Virus record (IMG/VR): IMGVR_UViG_3300037454_000132
Location: 1-58,095 of that record
Direction: 5' to 3' (one strand)
Length of the DNA: 58,095 nt
DNA from: a virus
Below, piece after piece: positions 34,787 to 54,580 of this stretch. Every line of letters begins with the position of its first letter. The stretch's first letter is position 1. Both the position numbers and the translations under genes were made by a program. The notes under the pieces are model-generated. The model searched no databases. It was not told where the DNA came from and saw nothing but the letters and a program-made list of their open reading frames with translations.

Positions 34787-37700
34787 ATGCAAAGCGTACC
34801 CGCCAACTGGGGCAGCATTTTTTCGGCCTCTCACAAAACAGAGTATCGCTTTACGGTAAACGGCGTGAACTATGAGGGCGACGACCTGAAAGACACGCCG
34901 GTTATCGTCAAGCCCCTGCTGGATAAACCCGCAATCGGGCGGTGCTGTACCGGGCAAGCGAAATTCAAAATCTACCCGAAAGGCACGATCCCGAAAGCGG
35001 CAACGGTTGACGCCTATTGCCGGTTGCGTTCTGCAACCGGCAATACCGTTACCAACTGGATTCCGCAGGGCAAATTTTACATTTCCAACCGCAAGGGAAA
35101 AGACCTGCTGGAAATCACCTGCCTTGACCGCATGATTAAGGCCGGGGTTACGTACCGCGACAAGTGCAATTTCAATTCGTGGCCGCAGCCTATGACCTCT
35201 GTGGTCAGCGATATTTGCCGGATCATGGGCGTCTCTCTGGACGCCCGGACGGTAATCAAAACCGGCGCGGGTTACACCGTTGACTACCCGAATGACGACG
35301 TTCTTATCTCTGAAATTCTGGGGATGATCGGCGCAGCTCACGGCGGCAACTGGATCATTACGGAGGCCGGAAAGCTCCGGCTGGTAGTGCTGGCTTCCCC
35401 CTCCGGCGACGCCGTACAGATTCTTGGAAAGGCTCACACGGGCTTTGTGGAGCGCGGCAAGACACAGACGATCAGCCGCGTCATTCTGGTAGACGACGCC
35501 GATAACGAGTTTACGGCTGGCGACGATTCCGGCCTGACGATCAGCGCGAAGTGCAACTATGCTACACAGGCGATAGCGTCAGCCCTTTGCAGCGCGGGAG
35601 GCATCCCGATTGACAACGGCTGTCTGACGATCCCGGACGCGGCTTTTTCAAACGGCATGATTTCCGTGGGCGCTGGCACCGTGGCGAACGGCAAAATTGA
35701 CCTGCAAACCGCCTCTGTGCTGTACGGTGTGATCTTTGAGCCGTACACGCTCTCCGGGGCGTATCTCAATCCGGCTGTTGAACTGGGCGACACCATGTCC
35801 GTCACAGACCGGGCGGGGAACGTCCATCGGGTAGTTGTGTTCTCCGTCAACATGAGCTGTACGGTTTCCTGTACGTGTTCTCTGTCCGCCCTGATTGACG
35901 GGGAAACGGAGGACGAATACCCGTACATCACCATGCAGGACTTGACCCTGAAACGGGCAGTACGGACGGATCAGACCTATTTCGGCAACCGGATCAACCG
36001 CTCTGAGGGTTTTGTAAGTGAACTGCTTGTCAATGACGTAGTGACCGCGCGCATGACCGCGAATGCGTCAAAGTTTTCGATGCAGTCCAAAGAGGGTAAT
36101 AGCTGGATTGACCGCATTTACTTTGACAACCTGACGGGAAAGTACGTTATCACCGGCGACGTGACTGTACAGGGCCTTGCGACGTTCAAAAGTGAGCTGG
36201 CCGTAAGCGGCTCCACGGTCATTAACGGCGGCAATATCACAACCGGGCAGATCAAGAGCAACAACGGCAGCGGCTTCACGATTGACCTGACCAACGGCAC
36301 AATCAGCGTCGGCAACAAAGACCTGAATACCGCGCTGAACGCCATTGATAACGAAATTGCTATCAGCGCAACGGCGCAGATGTTCACGAAAGCGGCTGAG
36401 GCGTCGTCCTATTCTCCGGCAAGTATCACGCTCACGGCGGTTTCCACGAACACCCTTGCGTCCTATCAGTGGTACAAAAACAATACGGCCATGAGCGGTA
36501 AGACCGCTCGGACACTGACCATTACGCCCAGTGACATAAGCGGCACGTCCGCGACGTTCAAGGTGGTAGGCACGGATTCTGGCGGACAGACCTACACGGA
36601 CGTTATGACGATTGCAAAGCTGGCGGACGGTGCAGACGGCGACCCCGGCGCAAAAGGTGACAAGGGGGATAAAGGCGATAAGGGCGACAAGGGAGATTCC
36701 GGCGTCGGTATCAGCTCCGTTGTGGAATACTACGCCATCAATAACAGCTCGTCCACGGCTCCGGCTGACAGCGCCTTTTCGACTACGGTACAGTCCCCGA
36801 CAAACGCAAACCGCTACCTGTGGAACTATGAACTTCTCACCTATTCTGACGGCTCCACCACAAAGACGCCGAAGCACGTTGCGGCGGTTTACGGTCAGAA
36901 AGGCGATACGGGCGACCCCGGCAGTCCGGGCGACCCCGGCAAGGGCATTGTGTCCATCACGGAATACTATGCTGTTAATAACTCCACGACGGCCCCGGTT
37001 GACAGCGCCTTTTCGACCTCGGTACAGACGCCGACAGCTTCAAACAAATACCTGTGGAACTATGAGCTGATTTCCTATACGGACGGCACGACGGCGAAAA
37101 CCGACAAGCGGATCATAGGAACATACGGCGACAAGGGCGATACGGGCGATCCCGGCAGTCCGGGCGTCGGCATTTCCTCGATCACTGAATACTACGCAAT
37201 CAACAACTCCACAACCGCCCCTGCGGACAGCGCCTTTTCGACTACCGTAAAGACGCCGACGACTTCAAACCGCTATCTGTGGAACTATGAGCTTGTCACG
37301 TACTCCAACGGAACGACGACAAAGCTGAGTAAGCACATTGCGGCAGTCTACGGTCAGACCGGTACGAAAGGCGACACGGGTAGTCAAGGTGATCCGGGCG
37401 TCGGCATTGCGTCCATCGTCGAATACTACGCTGTCAACAATTCCACAACGGCCCCCGACGACAACACCTTTTCCACCGTCGTTCTTTCGCCTACGTCGTC
37501 GAATAAGTACCTGTGGAACTATGAGCTGATTACCTATACCGACAATACGACGCACAAGACCGACAAGCGGATCATTGGCACCTACGGCGAGAAAGGCAGC
37601 AAGGGCAATAAAGGTGATAAGGGCGACGCTGGCGAGGACAGCTATACGGCGATTCTCAGCAATGAGTACATTGAGATTCCCGTAAACGTAGAAAGAAAAC

Positions 37701-39553
37701 CCCTGACCGCAAAAACCTATACCTGCGTCGTGTCCGTGTATAAGGGCATTACGGCTATGACGGCCACGCTCGACACCCCCGCAGCCGGTCAATTCAAGGT
37801 TGCTACGGGTACGGCTCCTACAGGCGTTACCGTCGCACAGTCCACGGCTGGAACGATCACCCTGACCGTTGCGACGAATAAAGCTATCATCGACGCCTCT
37901 GAGCTGGCCTTGACGATCACGGTTTACGGCGGGATTACGGTCAACGCGAAAATCTCCATCCACGCGAACATGAACGATGTGACGGTCACGCAGCAGTCCA
38001 GCATCGAACAGAACGCGACCAACATCACCCTGAAAGTCAGCAAGAATAGCGTTATCAGTGAGATTAACCAGAGCGCCGAACAGATCACCATTTCCGCCGC
38101 AAAGATCAATCTCTCCGGGCTGATTACCGCCATCAACGCTGACGGTCAGACCTCGACCATCGACGGCAGCAAAATCACTACGGGAACGGTCACAGCTACA
38201 CAGATTGCAGCTTCGACTATTACCGGCTCAAAGATCGCCTCCAACACCATTACGGCGTCCAACATCAAGGCAAGTACGATCACCGGCGCAAAAATCGCCT
38301 CTGAAACCATTACGGCGACCAACATAGCTGCCGGTACGATCACGGCAACGCAAATCGCCTCCGGTACGATCACCGCAACGCAGATCGCGGCCTCTACCAT
38401 TACCGGGGCAAAAATCGCGTCACAAACCATCGAGGCCGAGAACATCAAGTCCGGCACGATCACCGCCACCCAAATTGCGGCAAGCACCATCACCGGTGCG
38501 AAAATTGCGTCACAAACCATCGAGGCCGGGAACATCAAGTCCGGCACGATAACAGCAACACAGATCGCGTCCGGGACGATTACGGCAACTCAAATCGCCT
38601 CCGGGACGATTACCGCAACGCAGATCGCGGCATCGACCATCACCGGCGCGAAAATTGCGGCGAACACCATTGAGGCCGGAAACATCAAGGCAAGCACCAT
38701 TACCGGCGCAAAAATCGCATCGAACACCATTGAGGCCGGGAACATCAAGGCCGGAGCTATTACGGCGGACAAGATCGCATCTGGCGCTATCACCGCGAAC
38801 ATGATTACCTCTGGCACAATGTCAGCGGATCGCATTTCGGGCGGCACGATTGACGCAAACAACGTCACGATCACAAACCTTGACGTTTCCAACGCTCACA
38901 TTCAGACGATTTACGCCTATTCTTCGTCCTACTATGTCGCTCTGAAAACCTCTGGTACTACAACGCTGTACGTAGGTAGTGACGGGGCGTGGGCGGGTAT
39001 GTCGTATGTGTATGTATACGCGACGACCTCTTTTGAGGTTGGGAAATACGGAGCGTCGGATTGGTCGTACCGTTTGTGTTTTGATACCGTAAACCGTGAA
39101 CTCAAGCCAAACGGAACGAGCGTTTATGCGTGGGCGCTTGGAACAAGCGTTCGTCCATTCAAAGCAGGTTATTTCACGGAACTCTACGTGAATGGGACGG
39201 CAGTTACCGGAGGTACACCTACAATCTCTGTGCTGACTGGGAGCGGTACATATAACACGCTCACGTTGAACAGCTCAAGGCAGCTCGTACCCGGCTATAG
39301 CGGGACAAGCAGCACCTATGGTATTTCACTGGGAACCAGCAGCTACCCGTTTTATGCTCTGTACACGCACATTGCCAGTCTTGGTACGACAAGCACTTTG
39401 TCAAAGATCAGTTTCTTTGGCGCGACACTTTACGCAAAACAGACGGTCAATAAGATTTCATCCCCATCGTCCGCGACAGCGGCCACGATTGCGACAAAAG
39501 TAAATGACCTGTTGACCGCCCTGAAAAACTACGGTCTTATCGCAAGCAGCTAA
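34787..39553 (+). CDS. Tail-associated/tail fibre protein (1588 aa), modular
   Basis: Tal-like N-terminus, collagen-like GDKGDKGDKG tracts, four ~75-80-aa repeats, a long xITAxxIAxG decapeptide array, and a C-terminal tip ending KVNDLLTALKNYGLIASS. Confidence 0.85.
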   Translation: MQSVPANWGSIFSASHKTEYRFTVNGVNYEGDDLKDTPVIVKPLLDKPAIGRCCTGQAKFKIYPKGTIPKAATVDAYCRLRSATGNTVTNWIPQGKFYISNRKGKDLLEITCLDRMIKAGVTYRDKCNFNSWPQPMTSVVSDICRIMGVSLDARTVIKTGAGYTVDYPNDDVLISEILGMIGAAHGGNWIITEAGKLRLVVLASPSGDAVQILGKAHTGFVERGKTQTISRVILVDDADNEFTAGDDSGLTISAKCNYATQAIASALCSAGGIPIDNGCLTIPDAAFSNGMISVGAGTVANGKIDLQTASVLYGVIFEPYTLSGAYLNPAVELGDTMSVTDRAGNVHRVVVFSVNMSCTVSCTCSLSALIDGETEDEYPYITMQDLTLKRAVRTDQTYFGNRINRSEGFVSELLVNDVVTARMTANASKFSMQSKEGNSWIDRIYFDNLTGKYVITGDVTVQGLATFKSELAVSGSTVINGGNITTGQIKSNNGSGFTIDLTNGTISVGNKDLNTALNAIDNEIAISATAQMFTKAAEASSYSPASITLTAVSTNTLASYQWYKNNTAMSGKTARTLTITPSDISGTSATFKVVGTDSGGQTYTDVMTIAKLADGADGDPGAKGDKGDKGDKGDKGDSGVGISSVVEYYAINNSSSTAPADSAFSTTVQSPTNANRYLWNYELLTYSDGSTTKTPKHVAAVYGQKGDTGDPGSPGDPGKGIVSITEYYAVNNSTTAPVDSAFSTSVQTPTASNKYLWNYELISYTDGTTAKTDKRIIGTYGDKGDTGDPGSPGVGISSITEYYAINNSTTAPADSAFSTTVKTPTTSNRYLWNYELVTYSNGTTTKLSKHIAAVYGQTGTKGDTGSQGDPGVGIASIVEYYAVNNSTTAPDDNTFSTVVLSPTSSNKYLWNYELITYTDNTTHKTDKRIIGTYGEKGSKGNKGDKGDAGEDSYTAILSNEYIEIPVNVERKPLTAKTYTCVVSVYKGITAMTATLDTPAAGQFKVATGTAPTGVTVAQSTAGTITLTVATNKAIIDASELALTITVYGGITVNAKISIHANMNDVTVTQQSSIEQNATNITLKVSKNSVISEINQSAEQITISAAKINLSGLITAINADGQTSTIDGSKITTGTVTATQIAASTITGSKIASNTITASNIKASTITGAKIASETITATNIAAGTITATQIASGTITATQIAASTITGAKIASQTIEAENIKSGTITATQIAASTITGAKIASQTIEAGNIKSGTITATQIASGTITATQIASGTITATQIAASTITGAKIAANTIEAGNIKASTITGAKIASNTIEAGNIKAGAITADKIASGAITANMITSGTMSADRISGGTIDANNVTITNLDVSNAHIQTIYAYSSSYYVALKTSGTTTLYVGSDGAWAGMSYVYVYATTSFEVGKYGASDWSYRLCFDTVNRELKPNGTSVYAWALGTSVRPFKAGYFTELYVNGTAVTGGTPTISVLTGSGTYNTLTLNSSRQLVPGYSGTSSTYGISLGTSSYPFYALYTHIASLGTTSTLSKISFFGATLYAKQTVNKISSPSSATAATIATKVNDLLTALKNYGLIASS
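36636..37640 (+). repeat. Four tandem 224-237-bp coding repeats separated by collagen-like G-X-Y tracts (inside the fibre gene)
   Basis: Units start near 36701, 36938, 37162 and 37397. Each encodes G(V/K)GI.S..EYYA.NNS.TAP.D..FST.V..PT..N.YLWNYEL..Y..G...K. Confidence 0.85.
38170..38880 (+). repeat. Decapeptide (30-bp) repeat array inside the fibre gene
   Basis: Motifs such as ITATQIASGT, ITGAKIASQT and IEAGNIKSGT are iterated more than 20 times. Near-identical ~90-bp DNA blocks occur around 38380-38640. Confidence 0.85.
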
Positions 39554-40745: not shown

Positions 40746-41843
40746 ATGTCTATGAATCCCTTTGTTGACCGGTTTTCGGTCAACGGCGGCGCAAGCAACG
40801 CCGTTATCGGCGCAAGCGGCGATAGGTACTACGAGGGCGTAGACCTGACGCTGAAATTCGCAACAGAAATTGCCGCCTCTCCCTACAGCGGCAACCCGTG
40901 GGCGTGGATCAAGGCCCGTATTCAGGCTGCGGATTTCACCGGCATCCACGTGAACGACTACATCCCGTTCGTGACCACGGACAACAAGACCCTGAAAGCC
41001 TGTGTGGGCGGCATCAACACCTACAAGGGCTACGGCGACACGGCGGTAGGCAATCACATTGATTTCATCTGCCGTGAGCTGTGGCCTACCAGAAAGCCCG
41101 TCAACCCCGTCAACTACAACAACGGCCTGATCCCCGTCGAAACCCTGACCGGCGACGGTACGACCACTACCTTTGTTCTGGCAAAGGAAATGGACGGTAT
41201 CGCCTCCGTCACGCAGGGCGGCGAGGGCTTGACTGGCTACACCTACGACGCCTCCACGTTCACGCTGACCTTTGCGGAGGCTCCCGCCGCTGGCACGATC
41301 ACCGTCACCGGCACCGGCACGGAACATCCGTGGCTGGCCTCTGACCTCTATCACTGGCTGAACAGCCTTGCCGGTCAGGTGCCGAACGGTACGGGCCTCA
41401 ATCCCGCCGTGAAGCACGTGGATTACACGCAGGGCGGCGTGTACTACTACCTCCCGGCCAACCTGAAAAACGTGATCGTGGAAAAGAGGGCGTACCTGCC
41501 GAAGCGGTACAGCGCGTCCGGTCTGCTTTCCGACGACAACGCCGGAGCGTGGGCCGATATTGGCAAGCTGTGGCTCCCGTCCGAATACGAGGTCTACGGT
41601 GGCCCCGTCTGGGGCGGCAAGAACGGCTATGCGCTGGCCGGTAACTGCGTGCAGTACCCGATTTTCGCCCACAACATGAACCGCGTCAAGAACAGGAGCG
41701 GTAGCCGGGAGCGGTGGTGGGTACTCTCTGTCTATTCAGGCAATACCACGGATTGGTGCCATGTCAACAACAGCGGCGGTGCCGGCAACACCGGCGCGTC
41801 CTACACCAGCCGTGCCGCGCCCGTCTGCTTCCGTATCTCATAA
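40746..41843 (+). CDS. DGR target protein 1 (C-type-lectin-like/DUF1566-like variable C-terminus)
   Basis: Its 3' end carries VR1. The C-terminus is WWVLSVYSGNTTDWCHVNNSGGAGNTGASYTSRAAPVCFRIS. Confidence 0.85.
   Translation: MSMNPFVDRFSVNGGASNAVIGASGDRYYEGVDLTLKFATEIAASPYSGNPWAWIKARIQAADFTGIHVNDYIPFVTTDNKTLKACVGGINTYKGYGDTAVGNHIDFICRELWPTRKPVNPVNYNNGLIPVETLTGDGTTTTFVLAKEMDGIASVTQGGEGLTGYTYDASTFTLTFAEAPAAGTITVTGTGTEHPWLASDLYHWLNSLAGQVPNGTGLNPAVKHVDYTQGGVYYYLPANLKNVIVEKRAYLPKRYSASGLLSDDNAGAWADIGKLWLPSEYEVYGGPVWGGKNGYALAGNCVQYPIFAHNMNRVKNRSGSRERWWVLSVYSGNTTDWCHVNNSGGAGNTGASYTSRAAPVCFRIS
41715..41835 (+). repeat. DGR variable region VR1
   Basis: 121 nt aligned to TR 42414-42534 with 15 mismatches. 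Fourteen are at TR adenines and one is at TR T42511. Confidence 0.9.
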
Positions 41844-41858
41844 TCTGTTTTGGCAATC

Positions 41859-41877
41859 CGCGCCCCTTGTGGGCGCG
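41859..41877 (+). promoter_or_regulatory. GC hairpin downstream of VR1 (DGR target-recognition hairpin candidate)
   Basis: CGCGCCC-cttgt-GGGCGCG, about 24 nt after the VR end. The same sequence follows VR2. Confidence 0.7.
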
Positions 41878-41894
41878 CACAGGAGAAATGGATT

Positions 41895-42362
41895 ATGAGT
41901 AACGTGCTGAAACGATTTCAGGGGATCAGCGAAATGGAGTTTTACCATACCGCTGACGACCTGCGCACGGAGCTTTCCAGTTTGTTGTACAGGGATAAGG
42001 TTGTCCCGAAAAAGTATCGGTACAACGTCACGTATGCGGCGGTAGACGCCGTAAACCGCATGATGCGGCTGATGCACCGGGCCAACCGAAAATCCCTGTA
42101 CGACCCGGAGGAAGTAAAAGAACGCCGTGACCTACAGCAAGAGTGTATCGAATGCCTTGACGAGATTTGCGAGATCATCCAGTACGCGATTCGCAATGTG
42201 TGGTGGCAAAAGCTACACGCGGTAAACAAGGAAACGGGAGAGCCGACACAGGAACGGTTGCTTTTGGAAAAGCACCTGACCGATATAGGCGATCTGATTG
42301 ACCGCGAAGATCGTTTACTCAAAGGCTGGAAACGCTCTACAAGACTTCTCAAAAACAAATAA
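41895..42362 (+). CDS. avd: DGR accessory variability determinant (Avd-like)
   Basis: 155-aa helical, basic protein located between target and TR. AGGAG lies before ATG41895. Confidence 0.75.
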   Translation: MSNVLKRFQGISEMEFYHTADDLRTELSSLLYRDKVVPKKYRYNVTYAAVDAVNRMMRLMHRANRKSLYDPEEVKERRDLQQECIECLDEICEIIQYAIRNVWWQKLHAVNKETGEPTQERLLLEKHLTDIGDLIDREDRLLKGWKRSTRLLKNK

Positions 42363-42413
42363 GCAAATCGGTTATTTTCTGCTGCATAAAATCCTGAGAG
42401 TAGCCGGGATAAT

Positions 42414-42534
42414 TGGTGGGTACTCTCTGTCTATTCAGGCAATACCACGAATTGGTGCAATGTCAACAACAACGGCAATGCCAACAACAACAACGCGTCC
42501 AACACCAACATTGCCGCGCCCGTCTGATTCCGTA
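42414..42534 (+). repeat. DGR template repeat (TR)
   Basis: Non-coding copy of the VRs, rich in AAC triplets (caacaacaacggcaatgccaacaacaacaac). No downstream GC hairpin. Confidence 0.9.
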
Positions 42535-42758
42535 AAACACCGCTGATTCCGAAACAGCATATCCCCTATGGCCCGTATAGAGTAAGCGCCCCGCGCGCTG
42601 AAATTAGTGCCTACCCCAAAGCAAATGTTTACGGAAGGAGAAAATAACCGTCCCGAATCGAAAAGGGTAAATACGCACCGTGACGCGGCTGGCCGGACGC
42701 TTCTTGCATGGCCGGGGATGGCGACTGAGCTGACGGAATCCAGCAAGTACCCGGTTAC

Positions 42759-44087
42759 ATGACCATTGCCGCTATGGAGATCACAACGCGCCCCTACAAT
42801 AACACTCTGCGCGGTGCTTTCCCCCAGTTGAAAGAGGCAAACGAATTGAATAGTCAGGAACGACACGAAGCGCGCTACCAGCGCCGGAAAGCAGCACGGG
42901 CCGCGAAACGTCGGGAGAAGATCGGAAAGTATGACGACTTTGACCGGCTATCCTCCGTCCCCGCGATCCTCCATGCGAACTGGGAAACGCGGCAGGGCGT
43001 GATGTTCAAGGCAAACGTAGCGCGATACAACATGAATTATTACAAGAACGCTACACGGCAGTCAAAGGATTTGCGCGAGGGAAAAGACGTGCGGCGGTCA
43101 TTCTACGTTTTCGATATTCGGGAGCGTGGGAAGCTGCGGCACATTCACAGTCTGCATTACTCCGAACGTGTGATCCGGCGCTCCGCCTGTACCAACGCCT
43201 TTGTTCCTGTTCTCTCAAACGGTCTGATTTACGACAACGGGGCAAGCCTGAAAGGAAAAGGCGTGTCTTTCGCTGCGAATCGGTGTGAGGCACACTTGCA
43301 TAAGTATTTCCGGGAAACCGGGAGCAATGAGGGTTATATCCTGATAATCGACTTCAAAGGCTACTTTGACCATATTCTGCATGAGCCTTTGAAAGAACTC
43401 ATTGACCGGGCGTTTGAGGACAAGCGGATTGTCAACTTGAGCTACAGCTTTATCGACGCGACCAACCGGGACAAGCCGCCCGAACAACACGGGCAGGGCT
43501 TGTACATCGGGCCGGAGGACAGTCAGATTTACGCCGTCGCCTACCCAAATCGGATTGACCACAAGATCAAAGACGAGCTGCGGCAAAAGTATTACAACCG
43601 CTACATGGACGATTCCTACATCATTCACCGCGATAAGGACGTTCTACAGGCTATTCTTGACGTTCTGCTGAAAGAGTACGCGAAATACGGTATTATCCCT
43701 AACCCGAAGAAAACGCAGATCGTGAAGCTCTCAAAGGGCTTTACGTACCTTAAAACCCGCTATTACCTGACCGAAACCGGACGGGTAATCAAAAAGGCGG
43801 ATCATAGCTGCATCGTGCGCGAAAGGCGGAAGCTGAAAAGGCTACACGGGCTGTACGTGGCAGGTGAGGTTACACTTGACCAAATCGTACAGTCCTATAT
43901 GTCGTGGCGCGGCTCAATCCTGAAACGGGATGCCTACCGCTCTGTGCAAAGCATGGACGCCCTGTTCTTTGGACTTTACGGCGTCAAGCCGTGGAGAAAT
44001 CTTAAAAAGAAACGAGGTAAGTACAATGGACGAAACCCGCGATCAGATCATCGGGGAGATTACCGCCCTGAAATCCCTGCTGCGTGA
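42759..44087 (+). CDS. DGR reverse transcriptase
   Basis: LYIGPEDSQIYA (DGR-type IGxxxSQ) and NRYMDDSYI (YxDD). Confidence 0.9.
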   Translation: MTIAAMEITTRPYNNTLRGAFPQLKEANELNSQERHEARYQRRKAARAAKRREKIGKYDDFDRLSSVPAILHANWETRQGVMFKANVARYNMNYYKNATRQSKDLREGKDVRRSFYVFDIRERGKLRHIHSLHYSERVIRRSACTNAFVPVLSNGLIYDNGASLKGKGVSFAANRCEAHLHKYFRETGSNEGYILIIDFKGYFDHILHEPLKELIDRAFEDKRIVNLSYSFIDATNRDKPPEQHGQGLYIGPEDSQIYAVAYPNRIDHKIKDELRQKYYNRYMDDSYIIHRDKDVLQAILDVLLKEYAKYGIIPNPKKTQIVKLSKGFTYLKTRYYLTETGRVIKKADHSCIVRERRKLKRLHGLYVAGEVTLDQIVQSYMSWRGSILKRDAYRSVQSMDALFFGLYGVKPWRNLKKKRGKYNGRNPRSDHRGDYRPEIPAA

Positions 44088-44427
44088 TACCGATTATGAG
44101 GTCACGAAGTATGCCGAGGGCCTGACGGCCTGTACCACTCAGGCCGAGATCGAAGCCTACCGGGAGGCTTTCATGGCCCAGTACGGGGAGGTTATCGCCA
44201 ACCGGCAGACGTGGAGAAACAAGATCAGAGAGCTTGAGGAAGCCCTTGACGCTCTGGACGACGAAGCTGCTGAGGACGAGCCGGAGCCGGAGGGCGAGGA
44301 CGACGAATGGCCTGTGACCCCCGAAGTGAACGACGGTGAGCCTGAACCGGAGAGCGAGGACGAGCCGGAGGGTGAGGATGCCCCCGGCGAGGATGCCCCC
44401 GCCGCCGAGGACGATTCCGAGGACTGA
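44026..44427 (+). CDS. Hypothetical protein with highly acidic C-terminus (133 aa)
   Basis: Internal ATG of ORF 43930..44427, overlapping the RT 3' end. The tail is rich in DDEAAEDEPEPEGEDDE. Confidence 0.55.
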   Translation: MDETRDQIIGEITALKSLLRDTDYEVTKYAEGLTACTTQAEIEAYREAFMAQYGEVIANRQTWRNKIRELEEALDALDDEAAEDEPEPEGEDDEWPVTPEVNDGEPEPESEDEPEGEDAPGEDAPAAEDDSED

Positions 44428-44457
44428 GAGACTACACACGGGGGAGGATAACAGCCA

Positions 44458-44754
44458 ATGAATGAACTGGAAACTGAGCGCCGCTTAACCGCTGTGGAGG
44501 AACGGTCAAAATCGAACACACACCGGATCGACGAGGTTGAAAGACGGCAGGACAACTTTGACAAGCTGGTTTCTTCCGTTGAAGTCCTTGCCACACGGCA
44601 AGAGACTGTCGAAACCGACGTGAAAGAGATCAAAGCAGACGTGAAAGCCCTGACCGAAAAACCCGGCAAACGCTGGGAAAATCTTGTCTGGGAGGTTATC
44701 AAGTTGATTGTCGCTGCGGCAATCGGCTTTGGACTGGCCCACATCGGTTTCTGA
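44458..44754 (+). CDS. xhlA: XhlA-like lysis-associated membrane protein
   Basis: Coiled-coil N-terminus (RLTAVEERSKSNTHRIDEVE) plus a C-terminal TM helix (VIKLIVAAAIGFGLAHIGF). Confidence 0.65.
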   Translation: MNELETERRLTAVEERSKSNTHRIDEVERRQDNFDKLVSSVEVLATRQETVETDVKEIKADVKALTEKPGKRWENLVWEVIKLIVAAAIGFGLAHIGF

Positions 44755-44764
44755 GGGAACGGGC

Positions 44765-45046
44765 ATGGAGTTTTCAAAGAAAATGCTTGTTCTGCAATAC
44801 GCAATATCCTTTGTGCTGGTCGTCGTCACGATCATAGGTACTTTCAAGGGCTATGACGTGACGGCGATTGCCGCACTTGCCGGAGGCTCAATACTGGCGG
44901 ATGGATCATCCACCGCCTTTTATTTCTGGAAAGCCCGTACCGAAAATCGCGCGAAATATGCACAGCGGTTTGTGTCCCGCTTTGCACAAGAGTACGGGAT
45001 CGAGGCTGCTATCAGTCTTTCCGAAACGGTATTCCGCGACAACTGA
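44765..45046 (+). CDS. Holin (two-TM, phi-LC3/SPP1-like)
   Basis: Two hydrophobic helices followed by FYFWKARTENRAKY. Located upstream of the endolysin. Confidence 0.7.
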   Translation: MEFSKKMLVLQYAISFVLVVVTIIGTFKGYDVTAIAALAGGSILADGSSTAFYFWKARTENRAKYAQRFVSRFAQEYGIEAAISLSETVFRDN

Positions 45047-45078
45047 ATAACAGGATCACAAACGAAAGGAGGAACGCT

Positions 45079-46383
45079 ATGTCCTTGAGAGGAAACAGCA
45101 ATGAGGAAAGGATATGGAACTTTCTCAGCGATAAGGGCCTGTCCCCCTGCGGCGTCGGGGGCCTGATGGGAAACCTCTACTGGGAAAGCGCCCTGATCCC
45201 TACCAACTTGCAGAACACGTTTGAAAAGAAGCTGGGCTACACGGACAAGGAATACACCGCCGCCGTGGATAACGGCGTGTACACCAACTTTGCCCGTGAC
45301 GGAGCGGGTTACGGTCTGGCCCAGTGGACGTACCATACCCGCAAGGCGGCTCTGCTGGCCTTTTCTCAGGCCACAGGACGCAGCGTGGGCGACCTTGAGT
45401 GTCAGCTTGACTTTCTGTACAAAGAGCTGTCTGAGAGCTTTAAGAGCCTCCTGACGGCCCTCAAAACCGCTACCACTGTTCGGGCCGCGTCTGACCTTGT
45501 TCTGACGCAGTTTGAGCGCCCCGCCAACATGGGCGAGAGCGTGAAAAAGCAGCGCGCAGAGGCCGGACAGAAGTACGTTGACAAGTACGGCCCGAAACAG
45601 GCCGCAGAAGCCCCCACAGCGCCCGTAGAGCCGCTTAAACCGGAGTTTGGTATCTCTACCCCTATCACGACTGCGGCGCAGCTTGCGGCCAAAGCAAGCC
45701 TTGTAGCGAAGAACTACAAGACGCTGTATGTGATGGGTTGTTTCGGCGCGCCCATGACCGCCGCGAACAAGCCCCGGTACTGCACGAATCACGCCTACAA
45801 CAGACAGGCGGCACGTACCGCCATGATTAAGGCCGCGTCCGCTGACACGTTCGGCTTTGACTGCGTGTGCCTTATCAAAGGTCTGCTGTGGGGCTGGTGC
45901 GGGGACAAGAGCAAGGTTTACGGCGGCGCGCAGTATGCGTCCCGGAACGTCCCTGACATTGGAGCCGATCAGATGATCCGCGTCTGTAAGGACGTGTCTA
46001 CCGATTTCCGCAGCGTGGAGGTCGGGGAAGCGGTCTGGACAGACGGTCATATCGGCGTCTACATCGGGAACGGCCTTGCCGTGGAGTGTACGCCCCGCTG
46101 GGGAAACTGCGTCCAGATCACCGCCTGTAACCGGAGCGTGGCCGGGTATAACCGGCGCGACTGGAAGAAGCACGGCAAACTGCCCTACGTCACCTACGAC
46201 GGCATGACGGGCGGAAACGGCAGCGCCGGGAACGCTACACCGACAAAAACCGTGGACGAGCTGGCGCGGGAAGTGCTGGCCGGGAAGTGGGGCAACGGTG
46301 CTGTCCGCAAGCAGCGGTTGACGGCGGCTGGTTACGACTACGCAGCCGTCCAGAAGCGCGTCAATGAGCTGTTGAAGAAGTGA
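45079..46383 (+). CDS. Multidomain endolysin (lysozyme-like N-terminus, NlpC/P60- or CHAP-like middle, CW_7 C-terminus)
   Basis: GGLMGNLYWES...GYGLAQWT; FDCVCLIKG...GHIGVYIG; VDELAREVLAGKWGNGAVRKQRL..GYDYAAVQKRVNELL. Confidence 0.8.
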   Translation: MSLRGNSNEERIWNFLSDKGLSPCGVGGLMGNLYWESALIPTNLQNTFEKKLGYTDKEYTAAVDNGVYTNFARDGAGYGLAQWTYHTRKAALLAFSQATGRSVGDLECQLDFLYKELSESFKSLLTALKTATTVRAASDLVLTQFERPANMGESVKKQRAEAGQKYVDKYGPKQAAEAPTAPVEPLKPEFGISTPITTAAQLAAKASLVAKNYKTLYVMGCFGAPMTAANKPRYCTNHAYNRQAARTAMIKAASADTFGFDCVCLIKGLLWGWCGDKSKVYGGAQYASRNVPDIGADQMIRVCKDVSTDFRSVEVGEAVWTDGHIGVYIGNGLAVECTPRWGNCVQITACNRSVAGYNRRDWKKHGKLPYVTYDGMTGGNGSAGNATPTKTVDELAREVLAGKWGNGAVRKQRLTAAGYDYAAVQKRVNELLKK

Positions 46384-46389
46384 GCCGGA

Positions 46390-46554
46390 ATGATATTCGG
46401 TAAAATCGTCGTCATAACGGCTCTGGTGTTCTTTACCGTTCTGGCCGTCGCTGCAAACCTGATTTACGATCCGAGGCGGGACGGACGGTGTGACACCACG
46501 AAATGCCGGGACTGCCCGTTCCCTTGTGAACGGCACAACAAAGAAAGGAAGTAA
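46390..46554 (+). CDS. Small membrane protein with Cys-rich tail (54 aa)
   Basis: MIFGKIVVITALVFFTVLAVAANLIY...CDTTKCRDCPFPCE. Below the ORF-track cutoff and the RBS is weak. Confidence 0.4.
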   Translation: MIFGKIVVITALVFFTVLAVAANLIYDPRRDGRCDTTKCRDCPFPCERHNKERK

Positions 46555-46560
46555 AAGCCT

Positions 46561-46866
46561 ATGGACATTACCCCCATTGTTCGGGCGGTTATCGCCCTGC
46601 TTATGGCGGTGTTGACCTGCGTGATTATTCCCCTGATCCGGGAGAAAGTCAGCGCAGATCAGCTTGCCATTATCAAAATGTGGGTCGGGATCGCCGTCAA
46701 AGCCGCTGAACAGATTTTCGTCGGCAGCGGCAAAGGCAAGGAAAAGAAAGCCTACGTTATTGACTTTCTGGAAAGCAAAGGTTTCAAGCTGGACGAAGAT
46801 AGCCTTGATAATTTGATCGAATCGGCTGTCTTGGAGCTGAAACAGGCCACCGAAACAAGCGAATAA
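46561..46866 (+). CDS. Holin, LL-H-like
   Basis: N-terminal TM helix (IVRAVIALLMAVLTCVIIPLI), then VGIAVKAAEQIF...KGKEKKAYV. Confidence 0.65.
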   Translation: MDITPIVRAVIALLMAVLTCVIIPLIREKVSADQLAIIKMWVGIAVKAAEQIFVGSGKGKEKKAYVIDFLESKGFKLDEDSLDNLIESAVLELKQATETSE

Positions 46867-46876
46867 ACTACACACA

Positions 46877-46924
46877 AGAGAGCCGCACGAGGTCGGATTG
46901 TCCGTCCCGTGCGGCTCTTTTTTG
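46877..46924 (+). terminator. Rho-independent terminator closing the late operon
   Basis: AGAGCCGCACG-loop-CGTGCGGCTCT followed by TTTTTTG. Confidence 0.8.
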
Positions 46925-46937
46925 TTGCCTATAAGCC

Positions 46938-47210
46938 GGTAAACAGATTGGTCTACAAAGTGGGCTACAGTTTCGGAAAGTTTGTAGACTTTGTAGACCG
47001 GCGCGGTCTACAAATAAACAGATTTTTTGCAACTGTAGACCGATTTGTAGACCGTTCAAAGCCTTGTGTATCAAGGGTTTTCAGCTATTCGTAAACAGAT
47101 AAACAGATATTTCTAATAGACTTATGAAAACAGAGGAATTAGGCGGTAAAACCCCGCCTGACACGCCTATACGCATATGTCATATACGCGCGCGTGTATT
47201 TGTAGACCGA
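46938..47210. repeat. Composite iteron-rich intergenic element, copy C
   Basis: GTCTACA/TGTAGAC at 46951, 46983, 46992, 47006, 47034, 47046 and 47201. AAACAGATAAACAGAT. Hairpins. TATACGCGCGCGTG at 47183-47196. Confidence 0.9.
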
Positions 47211-47269
47211 GGGCAAAAACGCGGTGTGTATGCGTCTTTTGGCTGGTCGAAAAATTTTCCAAAAAATTT

Positions 47270-47334
47270 AGTCAAAAGTTATTGACAAGTCTATGAACGT
47301 GTGCTATAATTCAGACAGTCAAAAAACTTTGACT
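47270..47334 (+). promoter_or_regulatory. Early promoter with two flanking operators
   Basis: AGTCAA-N6-TTGACA (47270-47287; TTGACA is the -35), 17 nt, TATAAT at 47305-47310, then AGTCAA-N6-TTGACT at 47317-47334. Confidence 0.75.
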
Positions 47335-47376
47335 AAAACGACAACCGAAACGCGACACGCGAAAGGAGATAACACG

Positions 47377-47550
47377 ATGAAATACTTTGTGATCGCCACC
47401 AAATGGGACAGTGAAAAGGAAGCAGCAGTCAAGTACATTGCCGGTGAGTTCGACAGCTACATGAACGCCTCCCTTTTCCGGGATGCCTACAACAAGCACT
47501 ACAGCGCACACGCGAAAGTCGTTGAGGCTTTCAATCTGGTAAACGCTTGA
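47377..47550 (+). CDS. Hypothetical protein (57 aa)
   Basis: AAAGGAG lies before ATG47377 (MKYFVIATKW). The longer ORF from 47293 would start inside the promoter. Confidence 0.55.
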   Translation: MKYFVIATKWDSEKEAAVKYIAGEFDSYMNASLFRDAYNKHYSAHAKVVEAFNLVNA

Positions 47551-47571
47551 GACGGTAAGGAGGTAGAGACA

Positions 47572-47829
47572 ATGATTAAGTTCTACAAGGTCAAAGATAC
47601 GGAGATCAGAAAGGCCGCGAAAGTGGACGAGGATGGAAAGGTTGTGGCGGTGGTCGCAATCATCGGACGGATCGGTGAGCTGGTTGAACGCGAGATCATC
47701 AGCGACGTAGAGAATTTCAACCGTGTCCGGGATCGCTGGTTGGTTATGCCGAAAGAGGCAATCGACACGGAACGCTGCGACGTAACCTATGAGACGCTTG
47801 CAGAGGCGAAAGCGAGTATCGCAGAGTGA
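47572..47829 (+). CDS. Hypothetical protein (85 aa)
   Basis: AAGGAGG lies upstream. A GC hairpin follows at 47830-47845. Confidence 0.6.
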   Translation: MIKFYKVKDTEIRKAAKVDEDGKVVAVVAIIGRIGELVEREIISDVENFNRVRDRWLVMPKEAIDTERCDVTYETLAEAKASIAE

Positions 47830-47897
47830 CGCCCCTCCGGGGGCGGTAATGCGGGAGGCCGGTCACAACCCCGGCCACAGAAAGAGAGGCAAGAGCA

Positions 47898-48140
47898 ATG
47901 ACCAGAGCTGAGTATATGAAACGGGCGTTTGACGCATGGAGCGCCGGGAAGATCGACGAAGAAACCTACGACGCTATGATGCTCAATGCGGACGTGTTCT
48001 GCGACGACGAGGACGACGACACTGACGAGCGGTTGCCGGACACCTACGCTGAGATCGAGTACGAGGACTTTGACGACCCCGAAGCGATTGAGGGCGCGAA
48101 GTGGGACGACCTGAATTACCTGCACTACATGGAGCGGTAA
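47898..48140 (+). CDS. Hypothetical acidic protein (80 aa)
   Basis: Clean ORF with an acidic DDEDDDTDE tract. Confidence 0.6.
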   Translation: MTRAEYMKRAFDAWSAGKIDEETYDAMMLNADVFCDDEDDDTDERLPDTYAEIEYEDFDDPEAIEGAKWDDLNYLHYMER

Positions 48141-48145
48141 GGCAC

Positions 48146-48355
48146 ATGACGGCATGGGAAAAGGAAAAAGCCTACTGCGCCCGACGCGCTGAAAAGCTGG
48201 GCGCGGAAATGGACGCCGCGATAGAGGCGGGAGATCGGGAGCGGTTTATTGCTGCCTACCAGACGGCCATGAGGTATATGACCGTAAAGCGGAGATCACA
48301 GTATTTCAGAAAGTGGCTGGAAAGTCCGAACAGAGAAAGGAGCTACACGAAATGA
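48146..48355 (+). CDS. Hypothetical protein (69 aa)
   Basis: Internal ATG (MTAWEKEKAY) of ORF 48101..48355. Confidence 0.5.
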   Translation: MTAWEKEKAYCARRAEKLGAEMDAAIEAGDRERFIAAYQTAMRYMTVKRRSQYFRKWLESPNRERSYTK

Positions 48356-48717
48356 CGAGGATGAACAATGGAACGTACAACATGGCGACGGCAAAGGACG
48401 TGGCCGTGTTCGTGGACGAGGCGAACGCTATGATCGAAAAGTACGGCTGGCAGGATCGAACGGTCATGCCGTACAGCTACCCCGAAAAGGTCACGAAGAT
48501 CGTGAACGAGCTGCGCGACTACAGCAGATGCACCACCGGCAGCAAGCACTACCTGATCGCCCTTGCAAACGGGCTGGCTGACATTCTGGAAGCGTGGGAG
48601 CGCCACGAGCTGGAACCGAAACGTACCATCCGTTCCAAAAAGACCGGCAAGATCGTAGAGGTCAGCTTTGACATTGCGCAGGAGTTGATCGAGGACGGTT
48701 ACGCCGAGGCAGTTTGA
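48352..48717 (+). CDS. Hypothetical protein (121 aa)
   Basis: AAAGGAG-ctacacgaa-ATG48352. A 10-bp GC hairpin follows at 48726-48749. Confidence 0.6.
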   Translation: MTRMNNGTYNMATAKDVAVFVDEANAMIEKYGWQDRTVMPYSYPEKVTKIVNELRDYSRCTTGSKHYLIALANGLADILEAWERHELEPKRTIRSKKTGKIVEVSFDIAQELIEDGYAEAV

Positions 48718-48771
48718 AACCGGCAGTCCCGCCCCTCCGGGGGCGGGACGTTATACGAAAGGGAGGGAAAC

Positions 48772-48984
48772 ATGAGGGTTTACATCGTCGAGTACCGGCA
48801 CTACGACAAGCTGTTTGACCGCTGGATCAGCGCCGTATCTCAGGAGGGGTACACTACCCTACAGGCGGCACAGGCGTTCATCGAATCCCGTGCAAACGAG
48901 CCGTCGAAGCAGACCGAATACTATTATCAGACCCCGCTACTGGAAGAATACTACATCACCGAGGTTGCAATCCGGGAGGCGTAG
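48772..48984 (+). CDS. Hypothetical protein (70 aa)
   Basis: GGGAGGG lies upstream. A terminator follows the gene. Confidence 0.6.
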   Translation: MRVYIVEYRHYDKLFDRWISAVSQEGYTTLQAAQAFIESRANEPSKQTEYYYQTPLLEEYYITEVAIREA

Positions 48985-49004
48985 AACTACACACAGTAAA
49001 GATA

Positions 49005-49038
49005 TTTTGACCGGTCAATCGTGGCCGGTCAAAAATTT
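49005..49038. terminator. Bidirectional-looking terminator hairpin
   Basis: TTTTGACCGG-10 nt-CCGGTCAAAA followed by ATTT. Confidence 0.55.
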
Positions 49039-49050
49039 CTTACAAAATAT

Positions 49051-49115
49051 AGTCAAAAGGTGTTGACAAGTCTATGTTCGTTTGCTATACTGTGCATAGT
49101 CAAAAATCATTGACT
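49051..49115 (+). promoter_or_regulatory. Early promoter with two flanking operators (paralog of 47270-47334)
   Basis: AGTCAA-N6-TTGACA (49051-49068), 17 nt, TATACT at 49086-49091, then AGTCAA-N6-TTGACT at 49098-49115. Confidence 0.75.
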
Positions 49116-49155
49116 GAACACGATAAGCGACAAGCGAAAAACGGAGGTACGCGAA

Positions 49156-49488
49156 ATGACAGACCTGAGAACTTTCAACGACACCATCAAGGCGGCTGTG
49201 GCCCGTGAGCGTGAGGCTGACGCAAATTGGAGCTGGAATATCAAGGCCGTCAATAAGAGCTGCGTCAAGATCGGCTGGGGCTATCTGGACTACATCGGAG
49301 AAAAGGACTGCTTCAAGGTCGAGGTTACTGAGGACGAAGCCTTTACCGTGGTTGTCGGCACGATGCCGAACGGCTGCAAGCATCACGCTTTCATCGGCCC
49401 TGACCGCTGGGACGACGCAAAGACCATTGAGGGCGGTATCTCCCAGATCATTCACAGCATGGCGCGCAGCGCCCACAACACGTACTGA
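49156..49488 (+). CDS. Hypothetical protein (110 aa)
   Basis: ACGGAGG lies upstream. No family recognised. Confidence 0.6.
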   Translation: MTDLRTFNDTIKAAVAREREADANWSWNIKAVNKSCVKIGWGYLDYIGEKDCFKVEVTEDEAFTVVVGTMPNGCKHHAFIGPDRWDDAKTIEGGISQIIHSMARSAHNTY

Positions 49489-49503
49489 GGGGAGGCGTGA
49501 ACG

Positions 49504-49698
49504 ATGTACAAGAGCTTTTCCGTAGGAGATAAGGTTACGTTGACCGAAAGCGCGCGTCGTCAGAACGTCGCCCCTGAGAAATATCAGATCGGCGTCATTA
49601 CGGCTGTGGGATCGTGGAACATCTATGACGTGAAGTGGAACGGCATTGACCGCCCTATCGGTATGCGGGGCGACGAGATTCAGGGGGTGCAGGAATGA
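49504..49698 (+). CDS. Hypothetical protein (64 aa)
   Basis: Clean ORF whose stop overlaps the next gene's ATG (ATGA). Confidence 0.55.
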   Translation: MYKSFSVGDKVTLTESARRQNVAPEKYQIGVITAVGSWNIYDVKWNGIDRPIGMRGDEIQGVQE

Positions 49699-49973
49699 GC
49701 GTGTTCACTGAGTACGATTTCCGGCAGATGCACGTCAACGCGGCGCGGATGCCGCTGTGCGTCGGGAAGCTCCGCAAGATCGCCCACGCGGATAGCAACT
49801 GGGAATACTACTACGATCCGCAGGGCGGCTTTTGCAGGGCCATAGCGAAACCGGAAAGCGGCGCGGGATCGTCCGTGTTCGGTAAGGTCAGCTACGTTCG
49901 ACAGCTTGTGCGGGAGGGCAGGATCAAGCCCTCCACGCTCACGAAATACGGTAGGAGGTTATTGAGAACATGA
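49695..49973 (+). CDS. Hypothetical protein (92 aa)
   Basis: Operon-style overlaps at both ends. Confidence 0.55.
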   Translation: MSVFTEYDFRQMHVNAARMPLCVGKLRKIAHADSNWEYYYDPQGGFCRAIAKPESGAGSSVFGKVSYVRQLVREGRIKPSTLTKYGRRLLRT

Positions 49974-50167
49974 AACGCTGTAAGCTCTGCGGTGTTGAGA
50001 TCGTCCCCGGCGAAAACGGCTGTACGATGTACGACACCTGCTTTACCTGCAAGCCGATTCACTATCCGAAACAGCAAAAACGAAACTGGATGCCGCTGAA
50101 CGTAACCCCGATGGTGGATTTTGAAAATCTGATCCTTGAGCGGCAGGAAATGGAGGAATTGGCATGA
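49970..50167 (+). CDS. Small zinc-ribbon protein (65 aa)
   Basis: CKLCG...CTMYDTCFTCK. Confidence 0.55.
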   Translation: MKRCKLCGVEIVPGENGCTMYDTCFTCKPIHYPKQQKRNWMPLNVTPMVDFENLILERQEMEELA

Positions 50168-50331: not shown

Positions 50332-50351
50332 GAGAAAGGGAGGCAACTGAA

Positions 50352-51432: not shown

Positions 51433-51459
51433 CGCTACACAAGAAGAAAGGAAAAAACC

Positions 51460-51882: not shown

Positions 51883-51918
51883 CTGGAACGCTACACCAAA
51901 GGACGGAGGTAAAAGGGG

Positions 51919-53704: not shown

Positions 53705-53738
53705 AAAACTACACACAAAGAAAACGGAGGTAAGAAAA

Positions 53739-54527
53739 ATGTTCGACGCGATTAGAAAACCCACAGGCGAAGTGATACACGTTTATGCTGTGGAGGGCCA
53801 CAAATTTCTGATAACCGATGGCGGAATGTTCCTTTGGGACGATAAGGTGAACTACGCTCCGGTCAGCGGACAGGCCCCGGAAGTCAAAGCTGCACCGAAG
53901 AAAGACAACGCCAAGAATACCGCAACACTGTTCAAGGCTCTTGAGCTGGACTTTTCACTTGCGGATTTGCTTTCGCAGATGTGTTCTGGGGAGCTGGAAA
54001 TGTTTGTCGGAGATTACTTCACGACCCGTCTGAAAAACGGCAAGGAGGTTGATTTTGTTTGCACCGACAAAGACGGGCAGTCCTACCGGTTTGAGAGCCG
54101 GGATTGTCTGGGCCGGTATGATCCCATGACGAAGATTGACCGCTTTTTCAATGCGGTCTGGGCGGAGCTTCCTGATCCTTTGACGGACAGGATTATGGAG
54201 ATCATCAGGCAGTACAAGTCCGCTGACGGTGAGCTGATGGAACGTAAGTGCAAGCTGTTCCTCCCGTCCGCCTCTGAAATCTTCCCGGCTGACGAGTGCT
54301 ACGGGGATCAGGGTGTGTATGAACAGCTTGAGTGGTATAAGGACGTACACAACCGCATCCGGGCTTACGAGAAAGGCGGGGCCGCTGACTGGTACTGGAC
54401 GCAATCTCCCCGCTCAGGCAATACCACGCATTGGTGCACTGTCTACAACTACGGCGGTGCCGACTACGACCTCGCGTCCTCCACCACCATTGCCGCGCCC
54501 GTCTGCTTCCGTATTCCCCGAATCTAA
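53739..54527 (+). CDS. DGR target protein 2 (remote), C-type-lectin-like variable C-terminus
   Basis: The 3' end carries VR2. The C-terminus WYWTQSPRSGNTTHWCTVYNYGGADYDLASSTTIAAPVCFRI parallels target 1. Confidence 0.85.
   Translation: MFDAIRKPTGEVIHVYAVEGHKFLITDGGMFLWDDKVNYAPVSGQAPEVKAAPKKDNAKNTATLFKALELDFSLADLLSQMCSGELEMFVGDYFTTRLKNGKEVDFVCTDKDGQSYRFESRDCLGRYDPMTKIDRFFNAVWAELPDPLTDRIMEIIRQYKSADGELMERKCKLFLPSASEIFPADECYGDQGVYEQLEWYKDVHNRIRAYEKGGAADWYWTQSPRSGNTTHWCTVYNYGGADYDLASSTTIAAPVCFRIPRI
54404..54503 (+). repeat. DGR variable region VR2
   Basis: 100 nt aligned to TR 42435-42534 with 15 mismatches, all at TR adenines. Confidence 0.9.
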
Positions 54528-54541
54528 AATCCGCGCCCCTT
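54521..54541 (+). promoter_or_regulatory. GC hairpin downstream of VR2
   Basis: CCGCGCCC-cttgt-GGGCGCGG. The core sequence is the same as at 41859-41877. Confidence 0.7.
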
Positions 54542-54580
54542 GTGGGCGCGGCTACACAGCGAGAAAGGAGAATGCGAAAG

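Follow-up and report, generated by a model that had tools for sequence, protein, structure and literature searches.

The 58,095-nucleotide viral sequence of IMG/VR record IMGVR_UViG_3300037454_000132 (positions 1 to 58,095; hereafter the window) carries a diversity-generating retroelement (DGR). We consider it highly probable that this locus is a complete and recently active DGR with two targets, both of them diversified, that its RNA has the layout proposed below, and that it resides in a temperate siphovirus-like phage of Bacillota with Clostridia-type hosts. Its core is a cassette in which a first target gene, an accessory gene (avd), the template repeat (TR), a structured spacer RNA and the gene for the reverse transcriptase (RT) follow one another; a second target gene lies ∼12 kb downstream. 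All features described are on the + strand unless stated otherwise. The order target-avd-TR-RT, already pointed out in an earlier sequence-only reading that placed a DGR at 40746-44087, is that annotated in Bordetella phage BPP-1 (mtd-bbp7-TR-brt).

Template repeat and variable repeats

Aligned over 121 nt, the TR (42414-42534) and the variable repeat of target gene 1 (VR1; 41715-41835) are identical at 106 positions. Fourteen of the 15 mismatches fall on TR adenines (hypergeometric P=3.8e-8), the lone exception being T42511, which is G in VR1. These identities and mismatches, claimed in the sequence-only reading, were all reproduced by the computed alignment. The length of 121 nt given there has to be extended: a repeat search of the window shows that the direct repeat spans 135 nt (41701-41835 and 42400-42534, 86% identity). 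Over this length 16 of the 19 VR1 mismatches are at TR adenines, and the extended repeat holds a 4-nt block (TAAT/GCGG) with two non-adenine differences. The hypervariable core of VR1, 41751-41812, corresponds to residues ∼336-356 of the target protein, a predicted β-hairpin.

Situated between the avd stop (42362) and the RT gene, the TR is intergenic and lacks a start codon in the frame of the VR, in agreement with its earlier description as non-coding and rich in AAC. Read in that frame it translates as SRDNWWVLSVYSGNTTNWCNVNNNGNANNNNASNTNIAAPV*FR, with a TGA at 42525-42527, and contains nine AAC and five AAT codons (14 AAY in all), 36 of its 39 adenines being at codon positions 1-2. We also considered whether the TR is a piece of a translated gene, and rejected this; the short open reading frames (ORFs) that overlap it (42298..42546, 42413..42535 and, on the - strand, 42435..42866) have no support and are by-products of the conserved TR sequence.

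Scanning the whole window with the TR adenines masked revealed a third TR-like copy at 54393-54513. Over the 121-nt span, 17 of its 27 mismatches are at adenines (P=2.7e-5). The actual homology is confined to 54414-54513, which matches TR 42435-42534 (100 nt), and there all 15 mismatches are at TR adenines. This segment, VR2, lies beyond the interval delimited earlier, and is the second of the 'both VRs' that had been said to carry C opposite TR A42527. It belongs to target gene 2 (53739..54527). In both targets the VR ends 8-14 nt ahead of the stop codon of its ORF.

Relatives and evidence of recent activity

RT-guided searches recovered loci with 48-77% RT identity in Clostridia-type metagenome-assembled genomes and IMG/VR contigs; a TR/VR scan found adenine-biased pairs in every locus of sufficient length and in all seven relatives of this family. 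Mismatches are at adenines only in five of seven family loci; the others are the VR1 pair of locus L007, with 13 of 16, and the 135-nt VR1 pair of the window. A remote second VR is also present in L001 and L007. A wider set of 120 IMG/VR loci was collected by means of the core sequence GGACGCTTCTTGCATGG of RT-2, the spacer RNA described below; 84 of these have an adenine-biased TR ending fewer than 450 nt upstream, and in these 84 loci adenines account for 1304 of the 1362 TR/VR mismatches.

The most direct information on activity comes from L011, an ENA contig of a separate assembly that encodes an identical Avd protein. Compared with the window, its TR shows 0 differences in 135 positions; divergence is 0.6% in avd, 1.3% in the spacer and RT, and 7.0% in the body of the target gene. 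Of the 22 sites at which the two VR1 sequences differ, 20 correspond to TR adenines (P=3e-11), and 18 of these follow one another without a break at 41751-41809. Because the cassettes are near-identical and their VR1 sequences differ at 18 consecutive adenine-only sites, we conclude that the DGR has been active since the window and L011 diverged, with at least one homing event after the split.

The same pattern is seen in the proteins. Among ten homologues of each target family the hypervariable residues are those templated by Asn codons in the TR, and positions encoded by adenine-free codons (W, C, V, G, A, AS, T, AAPVCFRI) hardly vary at all.

Other features of these sequences bear on how the repeats vary and assemble. 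At 41811-41812 (TR 42510-42511) a T→G change, together with A→C, converts Ile (ATT) to Arg (CGT); this change is common to the VR1 sequences of the window and L011, though these differ at 18 other adenine sites, and is also found in the target 2 homologue P0157. The 90%-identity cluster P0132, which represents a target 1 homologue, comprises 1058 member sequences on only three contigs, a pattern that likely reflects DGR hypervariants assembled separately. One further assembly of the exact sequence (L005/L010, a contig of Logan SRR12681651) is equivalent to window positions 42420-57704; its start falls within the TR, suggesting that contigs are broken at the TR/VR repeat during assembly. Look-ups with the exact RT protein and with the 84-residue neighbour of target 2 retrieved this contig alone, which is 100% identical to the window.

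Reverse transcriptase

The RT carries the motifs LYIGPEDSQ and YMDD; IGPEDSQ aligns with IGSLTSQ, and YMDD with YMDD, of bRT, the RT of BPP-1, with which it shares 25% identity over 291 residues (E=1e-18). Among solved structures it matches best bRT as present in the BPP-1 DGR ribonucleoprotein (8ub7_A, E=9e-14), whereas group II intron RTs match at 6e-5 or weaker and retron RTs at 2e-3 or weaker. The protein also matches Pfam RVT_1 and PHROG 1423 (E=9e-63), and the nearest annotated RTs belong to published DGR phages, namely Shimadzu, nd12, nd4, Pioen, Roos and Taranis. The assignment to the DGR type made from the motifs is thus borne out.

The start of the gene requires correction. The listed ORF, 42759..44087, begins at an ATG that overlaps the RT-2 RNA. 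The TR is separated from the conserved RT N-terminus (MNS-ERHEARYQRRKAAR) by ∼310 nt whose conservation is at the nucleotide level, yet in relatives L002, L006 and L008 the frame from 42759 contains stops. Since the region of 42759 is a structured RNA with in-frame stops in relatives, we reject this start; the most likely one is the conserved TTG at 42846 (MNSQERHEARYQRRKAAR...), with AGAGG ∼10 nt upstream, giving a protein of 413 residues (42846..44087).

A structured spacer RNA and its predicted duplexes

The gap between TR and RT is filled by RT-2 (Rfam RF03077; 42568..42837), a structured spacer RNA found in all relatives and present in the window as a full-length, high-scoring member of the family (116.5 bits against a gathering score of 40). 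Two duplexes are predicted between this spacer and the sequences upstream of it, and in the window both are perfect. In the one, the TR 3′ segment UUCCGUA (42528-42534) pairs with the spacer strand UACGGAA (42630-42636), the predicted primer strand, which ends in the candidate priming adenosine A42636 and is followed by GG (42637-42638). In the other, the spacer 'Stop' strand AGAAAAUAACCG (42639-42650) is perfectly complementary to an upstream 'Stop' strand, CGGTTATTTTCT (42369-42380). Beyond the spacer Stop strand come a stem-loop (∼42652-42667), which covaries, and an invariant GUAAAUA.

Both duplexes show covariation across the wider set. In 60 non-redundant loci the TR bases directly 3′ of the discriminator A (A42527 in the window; see below) pair contiguously with the spacer bases directly 5′ of a conserved GGAG. 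The template:primer run has a mean of 5.7 bp, compared with 2.5±0.16 in 1000 permutations (maximum 3.0), and 73% of loci have a run of at least 5 bp, compared with 16% in permutations, with 27 distinct sequences. In the Stop duplex, the spacer strand starting 2 nt after the primer strand pairs mostly 2-25 nt upstream of the TR, and farther away in some loci; its mean longest run is 9.0 bp, compared with 6.5±0.16 in permutations. This duplex occurs as 35 distinct sequences, among which compensatory changes are plentiful.

This arrangement resembles that described for BPP-1, in which TR 117-129 pairs with spacer (Sp) 47-56 and Sp A56 primes synthesis, with TR G117 as first template base; 2 nt later, in the 'cPRT Stop', the spacer pairs with the 3′ end of avd, and a stem-loop and adenosines follow (bioRxiv 10.1101/2023.10.23.563531). 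Covariation over ∼60 related elements supports such a cis-priming layout here. By analogy, A42636 would be the priming nucleotide and A42527 the first template base. The differences between the 3′ ends of TR and VR in BPP-1 (TR 120-128) all lie within the segment that pairs with the spacer, and it is consistent with this that A42527 may mark the edge of the copied region.

In the window's clade the motif CTGATTCCG from the 3′ end of the TR is duplicated. Its second copy (42543..42551), 19 nt downstream of the first, is complementary to an RT-2 hairpin loop (42734-42743), forming 10 bp with one bulge to CGGAATCCAG. The pair is specific to this clade, covaries (CCG/CGG versus CCA/TGG), and may represent an alternative conformer.

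The original description of RT-2 made no DGR assignment; Weinberg et al. (2017) tied only RT-10 to a DGR, that of BPP-1, and left the other RT motifs open or speculative (PMC5737381). In the loci studied here RT-2 always lies between a DGR TR and its RT, and the conserved single-stranded AAAGGAG of the Rfam family would be explained as primer strand, GG and Stop strand, which pair outside the Rfam model.

Initiation of mutagenic homing sites and downstream hairpins

The initiation of mutagenic homing (IMH) site of VR1, 41814..41835, consists of a GC block, GCCGCGCCCGTCTG, followed by C41828 and TTCCGTA; VR2 has the same IMH (GCCGCGCCCGTCTGCTTCCGTA). The corresponding position in the TR, 42527, is A. 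This adenine, which is C in every VR, borders the predicted template:primer duplex and is a candidate for the first nucleotide to be copied. In the family, seven of seven TRs end in ...CCCGTCTGATTCC (A) and ten of ten VRs in ...CCCGTCTGCTTCCGTAT (C), so the difference is fixed and is not mutagenic noise. In the wider set, the same A/C change is where TR and VR first part beyond the terminal conserved block in 60 of 65 non-redundant loci. The change is frequently synonymous (GGA/GGC), so that selection on the protein does not account for it. The earlier suggestion that A42527 distinguishes IMH from a non-identical IMH* is borne out by these counts; both elements are present, with a presumed role in directionality.

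A GC hairpin with a 7-bp stem and a 5-nt loop (CGCGCCC-CTTGT-GGGCGCG) follows VR1 at 41859..41877, and one with the same sequence and an 8-bp stem follows VR2 at 54531..54551. Folding of the sequence downstream of the TR gave no such hairpin there. The contrast first noticed for VR1 and the TR thus extends to VR2, and it is general: a GC-rich stem (at least 7 bp, 88% GC) follows 63 of 82 VRs compared with 3 of 82 TRs, and the stems differ between loci by compensatory changes. The hairpin is a candidate DNA hairpin or cruciform element for target recognition.

Taken further, these features lead to a tentative proposal, one we regard as possible but would not yet favour: that RT-2 serves a large class of Bacillota phage DGRs as their DGR RNA; that this class keeps the BPP-1 cis-priming layout of template:primer duplex, 2 nt, Stop duplex, stem-loop and adenosines; that a single nucleotide at the predicted first template position, A in the TR and C in the VR, tells donor from recipient; and that the duplicated primer-binding motif and its complement in the window's clade (42543-42551 and 42734-42743) could form an alternative regulatory conformer.

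Accessory protein

The accessory gene (41895..42362; ATG at 41895, with GGAG 8 nt upstream) encodes a protein of 155 residues with a pI of 8.7. Its AlphaFold2 model (predicted local distance difference test score, pLDDT, 89) consists of four long helices, forming a four-helix bundle as in Avd. The top Foldseek matches of the model are 2gsc, 2rld and the bAvd chains 8ub7_C and 8ub8_C, with target-normalised template modelling (TM) scores of 0.65-0.79 and probabilities of at least 0.96. The gene is kept in position across all relatives, and its product is homologous to the annotated Avd of Roseburia phage Shimadzu (hhalign 98.7%). Fold, position and this homology support the identification of the protein as Avd; the earlier label 'Avd-like' stands on these grounds, and finds no backing from sequence comparison with bAvd.

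Target proteins

Target gene 1 (40746..41843) closes the tail module. It is preceded by a tape-measure-like gene of 1395 residues, a collagen-repeat tail fibre of 1588 residues and a small tail-fibre-like ORF, and lies ahead of the holin/endolysin genes. Its product, of 365 residues, comprises an N-terminal region, an Ig-like β-sandwich and a C-terminal DUF6273 domain (Pfam E=2.4e-6) that contains VR1. Searched against BFVD with Foldseek, its AlphaFold2 model (pLDDT 88.7) matches DUF6273, tail-collar-fibre and receptor-binding proteins with E-values down to 8.5e-12. The best PDB match is 9qa6 (E=3e-5), a Thomasclavelia IgA peptidase whose N-terminal domain is DUF6273 (PMC12402451). Comparison of the target C-terminus with C-type-lectin folds had been suggested; Foldseek and hhalign recovered no such fold, and sequence searches of target 1 toward Mtd and C-type-lectin structures were also negative; the domain is DUF6273. 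From its context, we infer that target 1 is a tail receptor-binding protein.

The large tail-fibre gene upstream (34787-39553, 1588 residues) encodes collagen-like GDX repeats and four copies of a ∼230-nt module. It also contains an array at 38156-38875, with a period of 30/60/90 nt, that encodes ...TITATQIASG... repeats.

Target gene 2 encodes 262 residues and likewise ends in a DUF6273 domain (Pfam E=1.6e-7); 81 homologues of target 2 were found, and the C-terminal 147 residues of the two targets are 35% identical. Its neighbours are an ADP-ribosylglycohydrolase gene on one side and a serine integrase gene on the other. It occupies the lysogeny/accessory region. The ADP-ribosylglycohydrolase-family gene (52079-53134) lies two genes upstream of target 2 and matches Pfam PF03747, with a score of 97 bits, below the cut-off, for the DraG-like TIGR02662. 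The serine integrase gene, 55412-57034, is on the - strand.

Alternative explanations

It is scarcely conceivable that the RT belongs to another class of retroelement (group II intron, retron or Abi/DRT defence RT) and that the repeat is an ordinary partial gene duplication. Such a view could draw on weak partial NCBIfam matches to group II intron RT/maturases, Drt2-5 and retron RTs, and on the speculation of Weinberg et al. (2017) that retrons might be the source of many of the RT-n RNA motifs (PMC5737381). The scores are far under their cut-offs, however, at 56.5 bits against 300 for the group II intron model TIGR04416, 26 against 235 for the retron St85 RT and 18-32 against 200-550 for Drt2-5 (32 against 450 in one instance), and Rfam identifies neither group II intron RNA nor any retron RNA family in the window. 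The best structural relative of the RT is bRT, and the mismatches are adenine-specific in two VRs and all relatives, and adenine-biased in the 84 of 120 RT-2-core loci. That VR1 is the sole true target, and 54414-54513 only a paralogous domain sharing ancestry with the TR, we judge very improbable, though less so. In favour of this view, VR2 is separated from the cassette by 12 kb, falls in the lysogeny/accessory region and matches the TR over a shorter stretch, of 100 nt. Against this, every one of its mismatches is at a TR adenine, its 22-nt IMH and hairpin sequence are identical to those of VR1, remote VR2 copies recur in L001 and L007, and target 2 homologues are hypervariable precisely at TR Asn codons. 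Published relatives, moreover, vary at both VRs (PMC11792537).

A decayed DGR, with an intact cassette that no longer diversifies its targets and TR/VR differences that are merely historical, is the least remote of these alternatives, yet still unlikely. Some Faecalibacterium prophage DGRs with two VRs show no read-level variation (PMC11792537), L005/L010 are identical to the window, and the non-adenine changes that VR1 shares with L011 could mean that this part has not been recently overwritten. On the other side, RT, avd, TR, RT-2 RNA, IMH and hairpins are all intact and strongly conserved, the TR being invariant and avd differing by 0.6% between window and L011 compared with 7% for the target body, and the run of 18 consecutive adenine-only differences between two near-identical cassettes requires homing after the split.

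Several observations nevertheless weigh against the reading of the locus as a complete, recently active two-target DGR with the proposed RNA layout. The sole other assembly of the exact sequence, L005/L010, is identical to the window and hence uninformative on variation in this genome. VR1 has three non-adenine differences, T42511→G and the two T→G changes within the TAAT/GCGG block. The fold of target 1 gave no match to Mtd, TvpA or FGE C-type-lectin structures in the Foldseek PDB search, and its comparison with Mtd by hhalign was negative. The Foldseek E-values of the Avd-like protein are weak (0.1-1.3), and four-helix bundles are a common fold. Nor does this protein have detectable sequence similarity to bAvd or to the Pfam Avd models: searches with Pfam (bAvd PF22296 and PF05635), NCBIfam and PHROGs, and single-sequence and profile searches of the PDB, were all negative, and hhalign against bAvd gave a probability of 0.1%; the Pfam bAvd model itself matches BPP-1 Avd at 7e-36. 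Finally, the priming site and the ends of the complementary DNA (cDNA) are placed solely by covariation and analogy, and the duplicated CTGATTCCG with its loop complement makes the exact pairing ambiguous in this clade, the choice of partner varying by locus.

Proposed mechanism

We propose that two-target diversification proceeds from a transcript that would run from just after avd through the TR into RT-2. In this transcript the 3′ end of the TR, UUCCGUA (42528-42534), would pair with UACGGAA (42630-42636); two nucleotides on, the spacer strand AGAAAAUAACCG (42639-42650) would pair with CGGUUAUUUUCU (42369-42380) upstream of the TR. By analogy with BPP-1, an RT-Avd complex may then prime cDNA synthesis from the spacer adenosine that ends the first duplex, copying the TR leftwards with misincorporation opposite adenines and halting at the second duplex. 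The mutagenised cDNA would replace the homologous VR in either target gene, the target being recognised by the GC-rich IMH, by the C rather than A after it, and by the downstream GC hairpin. The result would be the randomisation of ∼12-14 Asn-templated codons on a surface β-hairpin of the DUF6273 ligand-binding domain.

Comparison with other diversity-generating retroelements

The element resembles that of BPP-1 (mtd-avd-TR-brt) in its gene order, its homologous RT (25% identity), its adenine-specific TR-to-VR differences and the GC hairpin that follows the VR. In both, the IMH is GC-rich and IMH* departs from it only within the spacer-pairing 3′ segment of the TR, and both have a structured RNA between TR and RT (RF03022 in BPP-1) with the same succession of primer strand, 2 nt, Stop strand, stem-loop and adenosines. 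The two systems differ in the RNA family itself, RT-2 being ∼270 nt long and the Phage_DGR RNA of BPP-1 ∼130 nt, and in the RT, which here has 413 residues with an extra basic N-terminal extension compared with 328 in BPP-1. The Avd protein has 155 residues and does not resemble bAvd in sequence. Here the upstream Stop strand is in the avd-TR intergenic gap, whereas in BPP-1 it is in the avd coding sequence. One TR here serves two VRs, the targets are DUF6273 proteins instead of Mtd and, unlike in BPP-1, one conserved A/C beside the duplex is all that separates IMH from IMH*.

DGRs with two targets have been described in other gut phages. The Faecalibacterium prophages Lelie and CP11 have two VRs, in large and small DUF6273 targets, with variation at both VRs in related cases (PMC11792537), and phages nd4 and nd12 have two-target DGRs with VRs in DUF6273/C-lectin β-hairpins (PMC10743442). 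All these elements share with that of the window one TR for two VRs, a large and a small target each ending in DUF6273 with a C-terminal VR, and temperate gut phages of Bacillota as carriers. Because such two-VR DGRs have been published (PMC11792537, PMC10743442), the DGR of the window belongs to an already known type. The RTs of nd12, nd4, Pioen, Roos and Taranis are only ∼30-32% identical to that of the window, and the VR of target 1 in nd4 and nd12 is near the 5′ end ('tentaclins'; PMC10743442), whereas both window VRs are at the 3′ end.

The closest annotated relative is Roseburia phage Shimadzu (LR596903.1), with an RT 50% identical to that of the window. It has the same order of DUF6273 tail fibre, homologous Avd, RT-2 RNA and RT, and its annotated RT starts 3 nt past the end of RT-2. 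It differs in having a 45-kb genome of myovirus type (baseplate J and P2_I tail genes), and its Avd, of 136 residues, is without the insertion present in that of the window.

At the nucleotide level, megablast found no match of the cassette to catalogued phages. The first and last 127 nt of the window (1-127 and 57969-58095) are identical, marking a complete circular or terminally redundant genome of ∼57,968 bp with a GC content of 55%. After the lysis genes, the intergenic stretch 47820-47874 matches the type-P5 twister ribozyme (Rfam RF02684) with 62.9 bits, the gathering score being 37.6 (E=9e-11). Twister ribozymes are also found in the related phages L009 (4641-4695) and L006 (6909-6967), and L002 has a type II hammerhead ribozyme (14136-14203).

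Biological significance

The locus is an ordinary but very clean example of a gut-phage DGR, with an architecture already known in gut phages (PMC11792537, PMC10743442). It portrays a temperate phage of Clostridia-type hosts that probably hedges its receptor specificity through two DUF6273 proteins, one at the tail tip and the other in the lysogeny/accessory region. A more useful, mechanistic by-product is that the Rfam family RT-2 is tied to DGR function. In addition, for a DGR class distant from BPP-1, covariation backs predictions at the level of base pairs for the duplexes of priming and stop and for a single nucleotide that would discriminate IMH from IMH*. Such predictions can be put to direct test and bear on the engineering of DGR-based mutagenesis tools with new templates.

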